This document shows, one piece after another, positions 59 through 63,553 of a DNA stretch of 64,000 nt. Source of the DNA: an uncultured Candidatus Saccharibacteria bacterium (GTDB taxonomy: Bacteria; Patescibacteriota; Minisyncoccia; Phycocordibacterales; JAACPR01). Under the pieces are notes generated by a model, which worked only from the letters and a program-made list of their open reading frames with translations, had not been told where the DNA came from and did not search any database. Each line of letters starts with the position of its first letter. Positions within the stretch are counted from its first letter, which is position 1. The position numbers were made by a program, and so were the translations under genes. Location of the stretch: contig CAZIEY010000002.1 of NCBI GenBank assembly GCA_964538855.1, forward strand, positions 153,007-217,006, written 5' to 3'.

Positions 59-421
59 TTGAATTTGTATAATTTTATGGAAAAAATCATTGACGCAAAA
101 AACAAAAAGATTGGACGAGTCGCAAGCGCGGTGGCGAAAATTCTCCTTGGTAAAGACCAACCTGATTTTCAGAATCACGTCGTAGCTGATGTAAAAGTAA
201 TCATCAACAATGCTTCTCTTTCTGATGTTTCTGACAAGAAAAAGGGAACTACTACATACGAACGATACAGCGGATACCCAGGCGGTATCAAAATGGAAAG
301 CATGTCTCGTGTAATCGAGAAGAAAGGTTTTGCCGAAGTTTACAAACAAGCCGTCTACGGTATGCTTCCTCCAAATCGATTGCGAAAGGAACGCATGAAG
401 AATTTAACAGTAAACGAATAA
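59..421 (+). CDS. rplM: 50S ribosomal protein L13
   Basis: 120-aa ORF; N-terminal KKIGRVASAVAKILLGK... pattern typical of L13; immediately followed by S9 (conserved rplM-rpsI pair). Confidence 0.9.
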   Translation: MNLYNFMEKIIDAKNKKIGRVASAVAKILLGKDQPDFQNHVVADVKVIINNASLSDVSDKKKGTTTYERYSGYPGGIKMESMSRVIEKKGFAEVYKQAVYGMLPPNRLRKERMKNLTVNE

Positions 422-425
422 TACG

Positions 426-830
426 ATGGCAAAATCAGCAGAAAAATACATTGAATCAGTAGGACGACGCAAAACTGCAATCGCTCGAGTACGACTTACT
501 CCGGCTGCAAAGCAAAATTTTGTGATCAACGGAAAATCTCTCAAAGATTTCTTTACAGTTGACGCCCTCGTACGAATCGTTGAAGACGCATTTAACGTCG
601 CTGGTCTTGAACAAAAATACGCCGTTTCAGCACACGTGCTCGGAGGTGGTATCAATGGTCAAGCCGAAGCAGTTCGCCTCGGAATCGCACGTTCATTGAT
701 TAAAATCAATCTCGAATTGCGAAAGAACCTCAAAAAGGCTGGTTACCTCAAGCGAGATCCTCGAATCAAGGAACGAAAGAAGCCTGGTTTGAAGAAAGCT
801 CGAAAGGCTCCGCAGTGGTCAAAGCGTTAG
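426..830 (+). CDS. rpsI: 30S ribosomal protein S9
   Basis: 134 aa; GRRKTAIARV...; basic C-terminus ...KKARKAPQWSKR characteristic of S9. Confidence 0.9.
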   Translation: MAKSAEKYIESVGRRKTAIARVRLTPAAKQNFVINGKSLKDFFTVDALVRIVEDAFNVAGLEQKYAVSAHVLGGGINGQAEAVRLGIARSLIKINLELRKNLKKAGYLKRDPRIKERKKPGLKKARKAPQWSKR

Positions 831-835
831 TAAAA

Positions 836-946
836 CTACTTCAAAATTTAAAAGTCCTAGGGTCGCATCACGCACGTTCAGCAATGAATGTGCGTTTTGT
901 GTTGATGCTCAACCAGACATTTTAAATTTCGAAGTAGTTTGACTAT
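836..946. terminator. Long near-perfect inverted repeat (21-bp arms aaactacttcaaaatttaaaa / ttttaaatttcgaagtagttt) enclosing two nested sub-hairpins; likely rpsI operon terminator or small structured RNA
   Basis: Arms at ~837-859 and ~922-946 are reverse complements (1 mismatch); inner stems cgcacgttc/gaatgtgcg and gcatca/tgatgc seen directly. Confidence 0.4.
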
Positions 947-1024
947 TACCAGAAGGCGGTAGTTCTAAAGAAATTCTAAAGTTTTTTCTTGCCTCTGAAT
1001 AATGCGTGATGTATTTTGAGGTAG

Positions 1025-1468
1025 ATGGATAAAGATTTCAATACATGGAATACTAAGAAACAAGCAATTAACAACAAAGCACCTAATCGAGATTTATTTT
1101 TTCATCCTGGAGAATTATGGGAATGTTCGTTTGGAATTAATATTGGGGTAGAAATTGATGGAAAGAATGAAGATTATCAAAGACCTGCTTTGATAATAAA
1201 AAAGTTTAATGGAGATATGTTATGGGTTTTACCGTTGACTACAAAATTTAAAAATACAAAGTATCATTACAAATTACCTAATTCAGATATTGATACATAC
1301 GTTGTTCTATCCCAAATAAGAACTATCAGTTCAAAGAGATTGTTGCGTAGAATTGGCAGAATTGCTTCCTCAGTTTTTGACAACATTATTAAAGAGCTTA
1401 CAAAGATTCTAAATGACGAAAGCCCCCTTGCGGGAGCTTTCTCGGAGGCCGAAGCCACTAATGAATAA
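1025..1468 (+). CDS. MazF/PemK-family mRNA interferase-like toxin with ~30-aa N-terminal extension; no cognate antitoxin ORF found
   Basis: Core GELWECSFGINIGVEIDGK..RPALIIKK...WVLPLTTKFK...YVVLSQIRTISSKRLLRRIG matches PemK/MazF layout (G-D/E-h-W..F.P..G.E..G.RP.hhh...hP.T); 147 aa. Confidence 0.6.
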   Translation: MDKDFNTWNTKKQAINNKAPNRDLFFHPGELWECSFGINIGVEIDGKNEDYQRPALIIKKFNGDMLWVLPLTTKFKNTKYHYKLPNSDIDTYVVLSQIRTISSKRLLRRIGRIASSVFDNIIKELTKILNDESPLAGAFSEAEATNE

Positions 1469-1520
1469 AATATAGCAGCTCAGAGAAAAAAGTCAACTTG
1501 ATATTTTGACTGTGTTTTGT

Positions 1521-1549
1521 TTGACACCTAATTTACAGGATGGTAATGT
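1521..1549 (+). promoter_or_regulatory. sigma70-like promoter ttgaca-N17-taatgt preceding structured non-coding region
   Basis: gtTTGACAcctaatttacaggatggTAATGTttg read directly. Confidence 0.35.
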
Positions 1550-1555
1550 TTGCAC

Positions 1556-1835
1556 GTTGAGCGCAAAACGAGAAGGCTACTGATCTGGGGGGGGAAACTC
1601 TCGGATTTAGATGGTTCGAATCCATCACTCGGTTCTGTGAGCAAGCTTGGTATGTATAGAATAGGCTGGGAGCCGATGAAGTGTCAGGTCACACTGACAT
1701 AGAGGCGTCAGTGGAATACCACTCTTACCAAGCTAAAATCTATTCTGTGATATGGCATGAATCACAGGATAAGCTCGAGGATTGCTCAACTTTGCGGCAC
1801 CCTTATCTCTTGCCTTGGGTGCCGTTTTTCTATAC
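1556..1835 (+). ncRNA. Candidate structured non-coding RNA of unknown class (contains canonical tRNA T-arm gatgg-TTCGAAT-ccatc, pseudoknot-like overlapping helices, terminal hairpin+T-run)
   Basis: 414-nt ORF-free gap between the toxin-like gene and grpE; GGTTCGAATCC at 1613-1623; helices tgtcag/ctgaca, cactgac/gtcagtg, agcttggta/taccaagct; bounded by promoter and terminator. Confidence 0.35.
1795..1832 (+). terminator. Rho-independent terminator cggcaccc-N15-gggtgccg followed by TTTTT
   Basis: 8-bp GC-rich stem and T-run seen directly; sits ~20 nt upstream of grpE -35. Confidence 0.5.
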
Positions 1836-1882
1836 TCCATACTTGGTTTGAAAACCCCGCTTTTTTTGCTATAATACCCCTC

Positions 1883-2434
1883 ATGACAGACGAAATTGTA
1901 TATGAAAACGGCGACGAAGCCACAAATTCATTCGGCACAACAGCCGACGACAAGGTCGCCACACTTAAAAAGCAATTAGAAGAAGCGCTCGCGCAGAAGC
2001 AGGAATATTTGGACGGCTGGCAACGCAGCAAGGCCGACTATATCAACCTCAAAAAACGCTCCGAGGAAGAGCGTGCGAACGTGCGTGACTACGCCACCGA
2101 GGATTTTGCATTGAGCATCATTCCCGTCATCGACAGCTTTGAAATGGCGTTCAAGAATGAGAAAGCTCTCGAAAATGTTCCAAAAGTCTGGACCGAGGGC
2201 GTGAAATACATTTTCAATCAATTAATCGCAGCACTCGCGGGGTACGACATCAAACCAATCGATCCACAGGGCGAAATGTACGATGTGAATAAACACACCG
2301 CTCAGGAAATGGTCAAAGTCGATTCAGAAGCCGACAACGGCAAAATCGTCGAGGTCATTCAAAAAGGCTACGAATTCAAAGGTAAGATGATTCGACATGC
2401 GGTGGTGAAGGTGGGGGAGATTAAAGAGTTGTAG
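1883..2434 (+). CDS. grpE: Nucleotide exchange factor GrpE
   Basis: Start chosen at MTDEIVYENG (ATG 6 nt after a perfect TATAAT at 1871-1876; upstream part of the long ORF looks non-coding); coiled-coil + C-terminal beta domain typical of GrpE. Confidence 0.85.
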   Translation: MTDEIVYENGDEATNSFGTTADDKVATLKKQLEEALAQKQEYLDGWQRSKADYINLKKRSEEERANVRDYATEDFALSIIPVIDSFEMAFKNEKALENVPKVWTEGVKYIFNQLIAALAGYDIKPIDPQGEMYDVNKHTAQEMVKVDSEADNGKIVEVIQKGYEFKGKMIRHAVVKVGEIKEL

Positions 2435-2444
2435 TAGTTAAAAT

Positions 2445-3092
2445 ATGAAAAAATTTCTACGCATATTATCTTATTTAGCTCTTGGGTTAATAGTACTCTG
2501 TCTTTGCTACGGATTTTTTCTTAATCTAACACTGAAAGAACACATTGGTGCCTCGAGTCAAGAATTTTACATATCAATGCGACAGACAGATGAATTTTAT
2601 AAGCATGGTCTGTGCTCAGACATTCTCATAGTTTACCCTTGGCAAAATCCATCTCATAATCCAACGCAGGATTATTCCTCAAAAACCCACTGTGAGATGG
2701 TAGATAAAGAAAATCCTTTTGACTTTACGTACGTAAAGTCCTGGGGAAATAAGAAAGATATATCTGCTTTTGGTTATACTACCCACCCATTTACTTTAGT
2801 TAAAAAACTTTTCTTTAATAATCCATCCTCTATTTGTATTGAAGGAGTTCAGCAACCACTTCATTTACAAGAAAATATTTACTCAACGGAGTGGTTTTCT
2901 GTCAGAGGTCTAGAATATTCAATCGTTATGACAGAATCAGATAAAAATGATTGGGTAGGTATTATTAAAAATTTATCAGCAAGTAACGACAAGCCCGCAA
3001 AAGCGTTTCTTGTTAAGAAAGATAGTTGTAATAACATTAACGAGTCGGATGTATTAAAAACATATCCAATCAAATTTAATACTAATTGGTAG
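2445..3092 (+). CDS. Hypothetical protein with N-terminal transmembrane/signal segment, inserted between grpE and dnaK
   Basis: 215-aa ORF, hydrophobic N-terminus LALGLIVLCLCYGFFL; no recognisable motif. Confidence 0.5.
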   Translation: MKKFLRILSYLALGLIVLCLCYGFFLNLTLKEHIGASSQEFYISMRQTDEFYKHGLCSDILIVYPWQNPSHNPTQDYSSKTHCEMVDKENPFDFTYVKSWGNKKDISAFGYTTHPFTLVKKLFFNNPSSICIEGVQQPLHLQENIYSTEWFSVRGLEYSIVMTESDKNDWVGIIKNLSASNDKPAKAFLVKKDSCNNINESDVLKTYPIKFNTNW

Positions 3093-3139
3093 TGATAAAA
3101 GCATCTTGATTTTCTCCACATTTACCATATAATACACCC

Positions 3140-3439
3140 ATGTTCGCCCTATCCGCACAGCAAAAATACTTCCAAAAAGAAGTCGTTCTGCCAAACGGCT
3201 CAAAGGCTATTGTCTTCTTCGAGCTCGTTGAAACTAACGGCCGAATTGTTGCTCGCGCTGTTAACGTTCAAATCATTTCCGAGGCTAAGGCGTCTGCATC
3301 TGTCGTCTACCTTCCGGTTTCAATTACTCGTGCAATTTTTGCACCGGTTGTTGCTTTCTATTCAAACTATGTTGCTCCAATTGTCGAAGAACTTTCTTTC
3401 ATCACAAGCCAACCAACTCGCGCGCCATCTCTCGCTTAA
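3140..3439 (+). CDS. Hypothetical protein (99 aa)
   Basis: ORF only; position between grpE and dnaK. Confidence 0.35.
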   Translation: MFALSAQQKYFQKEVVLPNGSKAIVFFELVETNGRIVARAVNVQIISEAKASASVVYLPVSITRAIFAPVVAFYSNYVAPIVEELSFITSQPTRAPSLA

Positions 3440-63225: not shown

Positions 63226-63364
63226 GTTCGTCGCGATTTATTTTATAAATTCCTAAAGATGAGACACAAAAATCCCATCACTAGGAAGACCCGAAGGTCT
63301 CTACACCAGTTTCCCGATGTAACGCGACGAACGCCCTAATGATGGGGTTTTTAAGTTCGTCGCG
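63226..63364 (-). promoter_or_regulatory. Attenuator/riboswitch-like leader with mutually exclusive helices: X1/X2 (cgcgacgaac, two copies) vs Y (gttcgtcgcg), and a 17-bp terminator helix enclosing a UUCG-capped hairpin
   Basis: Plus-strand: gttcgtcgcg 63226-35 and 63355-64; inverse cgcgacgaac 63323-32; terminator arms 63268-85 / 63334-52 with T-runs both sides; gaccUUCGggtc inner hairpin (minus-strand sense). Confidence 0.4.
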
Positions 63365-63553
63365 ATTTTGACCATATCCTTTGAAATTTCAAAGGGGTTA
63401 GGTCCAATTAATATGTAATTGTCAGGATTAAATGATACAACAAAAGCATCGTTTAATCCAGTTTAGATTATATCGCTGAACACTCTCTTTGCTAAGACTT
63501 GGTGACGACCACACTACGCTTTTCCGTGTTTGCATAGATATATTAAAAAATGT

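Follow-up and report, generated by a model that had tools for sequence, protein, structure and literature searches.

A predicted small RNA with an L1-stalk look-alike and a T-arm at a strain-variable locus upstream of grpE in a Paceibacteria-type bacterium

We analyzed a 64,000-nucleotide (nt) stretch of bacterial DNA, hereafter the window (GenBank contig CAZIEY010000002.1, positions 153,007 to 217,006), in which a PemK-like gene at 1025-1468 (PF02452, E 4e-13) and grpE at 1883-2434 (PF01025) are separated by a 414-nt gap, 1469-1882. The GrpE sequence places the organism among the Paceibacteria-type Patescibacteria, within the Candidate Phyla Radiation (CPR). A sequence-only reading of this gap (the original prediction) had described it as free of open reading frames (ORFs) of 60 amino acids (aa) or more and as occupied by a highly structured RNA with a T-arm. 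The gap exists as described and contains no supported ORF, but two mechanical ORFs of at least 60 aa enter its 3′ edge. The first, 1757-2434 (+), is the grpE frame extended upstream, and is unsupported because close GrpE relatives all begin with MTDEI, which corresponds to position 1883; the second, 1786-2031 (-), is likewise unsupported. Small-ORF coding was ruled out, as substitutions keep base pairs rather than codons and a conserved ORF is absent. We show by sequence comparison that positions 1556-1829 of the plus strand form an independent gene for a structured non-coding RNA of ~270 nt, whose central arm is a look-alike of the L1 stalk of 23S ribosomal RNA (rRNA).

Two homologues were central to the comparison. 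One (L088), from a pattern scan of metagenomes, has the same orientation and lies behind a Fic/Doc gene, and its contig ends inside the RNA. The other (L092), found with nhmmer, is distant and lies on the opposite strand relative to grpE. In the two closest genomes (L001 and L002), the gene order is likewise rpsI-PemK-grpE, but PemK and grpE are only ~70 nt apart. Together with the window sequence and a promoter scan, these sequences delimit the gene as follows.

~1499-1847 (~350 nt), plus strand: insertion relative to RNA-less relatives, from alignment with L001 and L002 (~70 nt there).
1521-1549, plus strand: putative RNA promoter read from the sequence, with -35 TTGACA at 1521-1526, a 17-nt spacer, TG at 1541-1542 (extended -10) and -10 TAATGT at 1544-1549.
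~1796-1829, plus strand: intrinsic-terminator-like hairpin, GGCACCC, a 14-nt loop and GGGUGCC, then G and U5.
1848-1875, plus strand: grpE promoter TTGAAA-16-TG-TATAAT, from the promoter scan (11/12 matches, with TG).

Both transcription signals of the RNA had been proposed earlier, and both are conserved. The promoter is identical in L088, and L092 has TTGTTA-N17 (with TG in the spacer)-TAGGGT in the same register, then 6 nt and the GTTGAG of closing helix P1; the RNA is predicted to start near G1556. The window and L092 share the terminator, with its GC stem and T5 tail, at ~90% identity, and most of its loop is conserved as well. These two copies differ to ~65-70% identity and have opposite orientations, yet keep the promoter register and the terminator. 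A consensus promoter scan did not call the RNA promoter, since its -10 element fits at just 3/6 positions, and the terminator scan missed the hairpin because its loop exceeds 8 nt. The grpE promoter lies outside the RNA, sets its downstream limit and is also found in RNA-less relatives.

The plus strand of 1550-1830 folds to -103.7 kcal/mol, compared to a shuffle mean of -80.1 kcal/mol (z = -5.1; 0/200 shuffles as stable). The minus strand, at -82.4 kcal/mol, is 21 kcal/mol weaker, since the plus strand has many G-U pairs. When the three copies were aligned with a covariance model, 96.9% of 192 pair cells held standard pairs, although this alignment is fitted to the structure and so biased towards it. 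When the 3′ partners were slid by 1-3 columns, 36-41% of cells were paired, and no shuffle attained the observed values. Covariation among homologous regions had been suggested as a check; run on the three copies, it revealed compensatory changes on both sides of 21/74 pairs. The conserved, covarying structure and the z-score agree with the earlier description of a highly structured RNA. Outside the stalk-like arm, its elements are as follows.

1556-1562 (GUUGAGC) with 1784-1790 (GCUCAAC), plus strand: helix P1, closing the whole RNA.
1569-1631, plus strand: domain A, a three-way junction of P2, the variable hairpin P2a and the T-arm.
1569-1572 with 1628-1631, plus strand: helix P2 (window CGAG/CUCG, L092 CAGUG/CAUUG), two pairs of which show compensatory changes.
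1582-1591 with 1598-1607, plus strand: variable hairpin P2a, holding a run of eight G residues.
1610-1626, plus strand: T-arm, a 5-base-pair (bp) stem GAUGG/CCAUC with loop UUCGAAU, a canonical transfer RNA (tRNA) T-loop.
1632-1642 (GUUCU-G-UGAGC) with 1773-1782, plus strand: helix P3 of domain B, directly after P2, resembling helix 75 (H75) of 23S rRNA and forming the base of the stalk arm.
1741-1771, plus strand: hairpin P7, H79-like by position, UAUUCUGUGAU/AUCACAGGAUA in the window.

P1 reads GUUGAGU/ACUCAAC in L092, a compensatory change from C-G to U-A; in L088 its 3′ strand is lost at the contig end. In L088, P2a persists with changes on one side only; in L092 it is short. The 8-G run noted earlier is present at 1587-1594 but is not conserved, L088 having GGGAGGAAG and L092 lacking this hairpin. 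In domain B, P3 carries both the large arm at 1644-1734 and the side hairpin P7. P3 reads GUUCU.GAGUGGA/UCCGCUC.GAAU in L092. In P7, a U-A pair becomes C-G in L088, and the different sequence in L092 still forms a hairpin (GUAACU/GGUUAC).

The T-arm, gatgg-TTCGAAT-ccatc, is present as predicted. Its loop and two inner G-C pairs (GG-UUCGAAU-CC) are invariant in 3/3 homologues, while the stem covaries: GAUGG/CCAUC in the window, GACGG/CCGUC in L088 and (A)GGGG/CCCC(A) in L092. On its 3′ side, the T-stem is followed by A-CUCG, whose partner is the CGAG 55 nt upstream. The exact 11-mer of the T-loop, GGTTCGAATCC, occurs once in the 64 kb. As 1.35 matches with one mismatch are expected by chance, the T-arm by itself is not decisive; its invariance in three diverged homologues is compelling.

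A canonical T-arm could belong to a divergent transfer-messenger RNA (tmRNA), as the original prediction had proposed, or to a tRNA or another housekeeping RNA (RNase P, signal recognition particle (SRP) RNA or 6S), and the Rfam tmRNA and mascRNA models do match the T-loop locally. These matches span 13-15 nt; that to tmRNA covers 15 nt at 8.1 bits. Beyond such fragments, no match to tmRNA, tRNA, RNase P, SRP or T-box was found at E <= 10, and an Rfam scan of 1350-2000 at this cutoff gave nothing credible. At the gathering threshold, Rfam found no family in the gap and only a LOOT RNA in the whole window. ARAGORN detected no tRNA or tmRNA in the 64-kb window and just ordinary tRNAs in 43 loci. 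Of the tRNA features, the T-arm alone was found; there is no D-arm, anticodon arm, 7-bp acceptor stem or CCA, RF00005 has no match at E <= 10, and a tag reading frame is likewise absent. As most close relatives lack the RNA at this locus, a housekeeping RNA is unlikely, and its presence in either orientation in just 3 of ~12 close relatives also speaks against this group of explanations, which we consider scarcely credible. The scans that had been suggested, Rfam and ARAGORN, were thus as unable to find a tRNA, tmRNA, RNase P or SRP RNA as the earlier attempts at folding one. The other earlier proposal, a new non-coding RNA, fits both the lack of an Rfam family at threshold and the covarying structure.

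Several other identities were considered. Hammerhead ribozymes, group I and group II introns, retrons and omega-RNAs were dropped, as there was neither an Rfam match nor a partner protein, and the bacterial Y RNA YrlA had no Rfam match in the gap. The LOOT RNA (RF03000) lies at 63286-63404 (-) and matches its model over its full length with 77.7 bits, compared to a gathering score of 46.4.

The large arm of domain B resembles rRNA. Although the permissive Rfam scan of 1350-2000 did not report this likeness, it surfaced with shorter stretches or with L092. In permissive scans, a short stretch of the window matched positions 2126-2215 of the large-subunit (LSU) rRNA model over 1644-1734 (44.8 bits, E 7.8e-13), and the L092 module matched positions 2127-2214 (45.2 bits, E 1.3e-12). 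A short stretch of L088 scored 48.1 bits against LSU_rRNA_bacteria, and in each of the three copies the similarity is confined to model positions ~2126-2215. By alignment, the segment is shown to correspond to the L1 stalk: H76, H77, the kink-turn 77/78, H78 and both interdigitated T-loops.

1644-1734 (91 nt), plus strand: L1-stalk look-alike, Rfam LSU_rRNA_bacteria local match.
1644-1654 with 1724-1734, plus strand: H76, from the LSU alignment.
1655-1663, plus strand: T-loop 1, block GUGUAGNAUA.
1664-1665 and 1667-1669 with 1719-1723, plus strand: H77, 5 bp, from the LSU alignment.
1672-1674 with 1704-1706, plus strand: C-stem of kink-turn 77/78, with a bulge at 1675-1677 and sheared pairs G1678.A1703 and A1679.G1702.
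1681-1700, plus strand: H78 hairpin, from the LSU alignment.
1707-1718, plus strand: T-loop 2 region, UGAAAUACC, with block UGAAAUA.

In all three copies, H77, the GA pairs of the kink-turn and both T-loop blocks are invariant, and H76, the C-stem and H78 covary. H76 has compensatory changes in L092 (GUUGAUA/UAUCAAU) and a tandem G.A/A.G mismatch in L088. H77 reads GG-UGG/CCACU in the window, GGUGG/CCACC in L088 and GGUUGG/CCAACC in L092. H78 is GUGUCAG/CUGACAU in the window and ACAUACC/GGUAUGU in L092; L088, with GUGUCAG/CUGGCAC, has only one-sided changes. The kink-turn, which we recognized from the three sequences ahead of the LSU match, has the C-stem GCC/GGC (GAC/GUC in L092), a 3-nt bulge GAU/GGU and invariant GA...GA.

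The rRNA fold revises several pairings suggested earlier, in a feature list that did not include an L1 stalk. A 9-bp "long-range pairing" (AGCTTGGTA/TACCAAGCT, 1644-1652/1726-1734) is H76, but the 7-bp AGAATAG/CTATTCT listed with it is not kept in the homologues. Likewise, of two mutually overlapping helices, the GTGTCAG/CTGACAT hairpin at 1681-1700 is present, and the alternative CACTGAC/GTCAGTG is not kept. In the rRNA fold, the bases of the two unconserved helices form the T-loops. Hairpins 1664-1674 and 1710-1723 of the window-only minimum-free-energy (MFE) fold and our interim helices P5 and P5a were replaced by H77 and the T-loops. Pairs that appear broken in the window-only MFE fold are regular H77 pairs in the rRNA fold.

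The LSU match stops exactly at the base of H76. The conserved 23S sequence that flanks the stalk in rRNA is gone, and the flanks of the arm have no LSU similarity. P3 and P7 sit where H75 and H79 do in a three-way junction but do not resemble them in sequence; for the ribosomal stalk, the H75/H76/H79 junction has been described (PMC3401443). The RNA is therefore laid out as a stalk on an H75/H79-like junction, joined by the 7-bp P1 to a second three-way junction that bears the T-arm. Rfam found no rRNA in the 64-kb window at the gathering threshold. As the match ends at H76 and the window lacks rRNA, the arm is a delimited structural copy within another RNA rather than part of an rRNA gene.

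The main competing account is that the element is a decaying, non-functional 23S fragment, perhaps joined to a tRNA fragment, in a recombination hotspot, and that its structure is inherited from rRNA. The core is strongly rRNA-like, with an LSU match in all three copies; the locus is a hotspot of insertion and mosaic recombination; the window copy departs from rRNA at four conserved positions; and most relatives lack the RNA. However, the similarity ends at a complete structural module and the flanking 23S is missing. The non-rRNA helices P1, P2, P3 and P7 and the T-arm also have compensatory changes, the promoter register and terminator persist in diverged and inverted copies, and similarly precise modules occur in several unrelated phage genomes (see below). 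We consider decay of this kind improbable.

A trans-encoded piece of a fragmented 23S that supplies the stalk to ribosomes lacking their own is another conceivable role for a complete stalk on an H75/H79-like junction, and some CPR ribosomes do have an incomplete L1 stalk (PMC9297842). Such a piece should pair with the remaining 23S, and P1 closes this RNA on itself, leaving no free strands. As the RNA is also absent from the locus in most close relatives and its T-arm domain has no rRNA counterpart, we find this role highly improbable.

We also considered whether the RNA is a cis-acting leader of grpE-dnaK, such as a riboswitch, a T-box-like element or a heat-shock thermometer. It directly precedes grpE, has a terminator hairpin at its end and combines a kink-turn with T-loops, as T-boxes do. 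Sub-threshold matches to the c-di-GMP-II riboswitch (12.9 bits in the window, 22.7 in L088 and 28.8 in L092) point in the same direction, but fall far below the gathering score of 53.5. However, the strong promoter of grpE lies downstream of the terminator, the L092 RNA is oriented away from grpE and convergent with the upstream ORF, and grpE has no such RNA in most relatives. A leader function therefore seems very remote. The specific candidates were rejected: the c-di-GMP-II match is sub-threshold and overlaps the kink-turn, which the LSU model scores higher; no T-box match was found at E <= 10, and the gene that follows encodes a chaperone and has a promoter of its own. An autoregulatory leader for uL1 was also rejected, as the neighbors are PemK and grpE, the RNA has its own terminator and it is inverted in L092. 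No L1 or L11 homologue was found in the 64-kb window or in any fetched locus.

To follow the distribution of the RNA, we traced further relatives through GrpE clusters and compared the loci over +/-3-4 kb around grpE, so copies might lie elsewhere in the genomes that lack one here. The RNA is present in 3 of ~12 loci (the window, L088 and L092) and absent from L001, L002, L084, L085/86, L087, L090, L091, L093 and L097. Two other assemblies (L081-L083) also carry the window allele. When 755 kb of related sequence was searched with a covariance model of the entire RNA, the three copies were the only matches, and nhmmer and blastn revealed no further copy in the rest of the window and 80 GrpE loci. 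No match to the element was found by blastn in phage and plasmid collections, or in viral scans with window-specific 20-26-mers. A pattern joining the T-loop to GGTTCTG had three unrelated matches in viral contigs, two at or beside tRNAs called by ARAGORN and one in a contig without a called tRNA.

The interval between rpsI and grpE holds different cargo in different strains.

PemK: window, L001, L002, L090.
Antitoxin and Fic/Doc: L084, L088.
An uncharacterized 126-aa ORF (no Pfam match in L092): L087, L091, L092, L097.
Nothing: L085/86.

Comparison of these loci shows the RNA gene to be, as judged from sequence, an accessory cassette in an rpsI-grpE hotspot of one Paceibacteria-type lineage, present in some strains and in either orientation. 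The left end of the insertion, GATATTTTG, is common to the window and L088 despite their different upstream genes. Junctions compared with L084, L091, L097 and L092 revealed remnants or duplicates of the grpE promoter region on both sides of the insertion, which suggests insertion into, or recombination at, the grpE promoter. In the window (1469-1520 and 1830-1882) and L092 (3640-3700 and 3960-4000), the cassette lies between two copies of this region, a degenerate left copy (GAAAAAGTCAA...CTGT) and an intact right copy (TTGAAA-N16/17-TATAAT). No clear terminal repeats or target-site duplication were found at the window and L092 junctions. The flanks resemble duplicated grpE promoter segments.

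Variation extends beyond the RNA. Both flanks of grpE are strain-variable (831-3139 in the window; L001, L002, L084-L087, L090-L093 and L097), and cargo downstream of grpE consists of GmrSD, type III restriction-modification, a Zeta-toxin-like gene or a 215-aa ORF. In the window, two ORFs without a Pfam match lie between grpE and dnaK: 2445-3092 (215 aa, with an N-terminal hydrophobic segment) and 3140-3439 (99 aa). In L085, a 99-aa gene call, compared by position only, occupies the same place just upstream of dnaK. The genomes are mosaic: the GrpE of L001 has an L002-type N terminus and a window-type C-terminal two-thirds. Between the window (59-830) and L088, rpsI is 96.8% identical and the adjacent rplM just 80.9%; the first ~85 nt of the RNA are identical in these two copies and the remainder is ~86% identical.

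Since the RNA directly follows a PemK-like gene without an adjoining protein antitoxin, and a Fic/Doc gene in L088, it could be an RNA antitoxin or decoy that imitates the rRNA or tRNA target of the neighboring toxin (a PemK/MazF-type endoribonuclease or Doc) and thereby neutralizes it. Some MazF toxins do cut rRNA or tRNA. Several of the loci do not fit this explanation: the same PemK occurs without the RNA in L001, L002 and L090, and the same Doc pair without it in L084. In addition, the inverted RNA of L092 neighbors the unrelated 126-aa ORF, and L088 has a candidate protein antitoxin ORF upstream of Doc. We regard an antitoxin as quite improbable. Within the intervals 831-1468 of the window, 3368-3928 of L001 and 3371-3928 of L002, the PemK/MazF-like gene has no antitoxin ORF beside it in any of the three genomes, and its C-terminal motif SPLAGAFSEAEATN is identical across these otherwise diverged copies.

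To look for similar modules elsewhere, we scanned IMG/VR with the conserved stalk-loop pattern and obtained 12 loci. By Rfam, one is a full 23S and one a contig-end 23S piece; L098 and L108 (at a contig end) are probably true 23S, judged from their flanks. The other eight loci represent five distinct isolated modules of ~80 nt (L099=L103=L105, L106, L100, L107 and L101=L104), on metagenomic phage contigs that lack an rRNA gene and are 58-153 kb long, except one of 4.8 kb. Modules were placed at the following positions.

L103, 1772-1855: isolated stalk module.
L106, 1229-1312: isolated stalk module.
L100, 4719-4798: isolated stalk module in a tRNA array.
L107, ~386-465: isolated stalk module in a tRNA array.
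L101, 2484-2566: isolated stalk module behind an AAA_33 kinase and a metallophosphoesterase.
L104, 469-551: isolated stalk module, the same as in L101.

The modules of L100 and L107 lie 47-50 nt upstream of a tRNA, and two phage modules precede, by ~25 nt, an ORF that has a ribosome-binding site. We aligned the three CPR modules, the five phage modules and one true 23S with MAFFT and scored the alignment on the rRNA structure. In this alignment, 88.8% of cells were paired, compared to 36-45% when slid. Changes on both sides occurred in 17/24 pairs, including all 8 pairs of H78, and the T-loops, H77 and GA pairs were invariant. The covariance model of the full RNA matched the phage modules only over its positions 92-176. 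A pattern of a T-arm followed by a stalk had no match in viral contigs, and when deposited phage genomes were queried with a phage module, the only matches were true 23S contaminants. A literature search, including T-loop non-coding RNAs in Patescibacteria, found no description of L1-stalk-like small RNAs.

The likeness to the 23S L1 stalk includes its secondary structure, kink-turn 77/78, covarying helices, the layout of closing helix, stalk and side hairpin, and near-identical loops (GUGUAGNAUAGG-UGGGAG ... GGAG ... UGAAAUACCACC). Unlike the ribosomal stalk, the module is 91 nt of a 270-nt RNA with its own promoter and terminator, lies outside an rRNA gene, is fused to a T-arm domain, varies between strains and occurs in either orientation. 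The phage modules share the precise H76-H78 boundaries outside rRNA, the conserved loops, the covarying helices and a linkage to tRNA. They are ~80 nt long, lack P1, P3, P7 and the T-arm domain, and adjoin real tRNA genes or lie just upstream of ORFs.

An extra-ribosomal imitation of the stalk has a precedent in messenger RNA (mRNA): uL1 represses its own operon by binding an mRNA site that imitates H77/H78 and has no T-loops. uL1 is also named as a repressor elsewhere (PMC13157829). The site in the L11-operon (rplKA) mRNA resembles our RNA in imitating H77/H78 outside the ribosome. It is, however, a short element of the 5′ untranslated region next to rplK and rplA, without T-loops, whereas the small RNA is free-standing and contains the entire stalk with both T-loops.

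In the ribosome, the L1 stalk and its protein uL1 grip the elbow of the E-site tRNA by means of two interdigitated T-loops, and RNase P and T-boxes dock elbows in the same manner (PMC4810234). Our RNA shares the double T-loop with T-box Stem I and the RNase P specificity domain, and combines it with a kink-turn as T-box Stem I does. It differs in being a copy of rRNA at the sequence level rather than convergent, and it lacks the specifier loop, T-box sequence and catalytic domain. Like tmRNA and YrlA, it is a larger non-coding RNA with a canonical T-arm off a multi-helix junction; unlike these, it has an rRNA-like domain and no acceptor stem or CCA, tag ORF or D-arm.

Based on these comparisons, our preferred reading, to which we give an even chance, is that the RNA mimics the L1 stalk and, away from the ribosome, would bind uL1, tRNA elbows or both. 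The stalk replica would offer the surfaces of the ribosomal stalk, allowing it to bind uL1, to dock tRNA elbows on its double T-loop platform, or both. Its own T-loop hairpin may serve as a ligand resembling an elbow, either within the same molecule or between molecules. A mobile accessory element would in this way be expected to titrate or tether uL1 or tRNA. Since the mRNA mimic of uL1 lacks T-loops, the retention of both in this RNA argues for more than uL1 binding alone. A tRNA or tRNA-like partner is favored by the T-loops kept in every free-standing copy and by the association with tRNA, seen as the fused T-arm of the CPR RNA and the tRNA arrays of the phages.

The arrangement of domain A bears on how such docking could occur. 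No linker separates P2 from P3 and a single base separates P2 from the T-stem, so P3, P2 and the T-stem could form a single stack. In that stack the T-loop would lie opposite the stalk head, which leads us to speculate that docking is likelier between molecules than within one. More broadly, free-standing L1-stalk RNAs could be a hitherto unrecognized class, carried by mobile elements and phages, that captures tRNA elbows (or uL1) through the double T-loops; we advance this extension tentatively and consider it unlikely as a whole. The CPR RNA would then be a rod with the stalk head at one end and the T-loop at the other, which might dock head to tail on itself or a partner, or present the T-arm as a pseudo-substrate. 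Its role would be to manipulate tRNA supply, tRNA repair or tRNA-targeting defence.

Several observations weigh against a functional stalk mimic. At four conserved positions of the stalk (A1656, inserted C1666, G1714 and U1723), the window copy differs from the rRNA consensus, which L088 and L092 retain there; the window copy may therefore be drifting. Only three family members are known, one of which is cut off by the end of its contig and one of which closely resembles the window copy, and, as described above, the three-copy pair counts lean towards the structure and the presence/absence survey covers the surroundings of grpE. Part of the covariation in H76 and H78 could come from the copying of different resident 23S alleles rather than from selection. 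Lastly, a subgroup of Parcubacteria entirely lacks uL1 (PMC9297842), one of the two partners proposed.

The RNA is a variant of kinds already known, rRNA mimicry and elbow-docking modules, and it stands a substantial chance of being a new functional class. Short protein-binding sites in the mRNAs of ribosomal proteins are already known to mimic rRNA. Elbow-docking double T-loops are, to our knowledge, known from only three RNA classes. If our reading is correct, a complete L1 stalk in an independent, horizontally mobile small RNA with a T-arm would be a different use of this structure. Short "partial 23S" matches in phage and CPR genomes should accordingly not be dismissed as contamination. 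The CPR RNA and its simpler relatives in phage arrays suggest that mobile elements deploy a detached part of the ribosome to bind tRNA or uL1, which would bear on how CPR bacteria, some of which lack uL1 or parts of the stalk, and phages tune translation.

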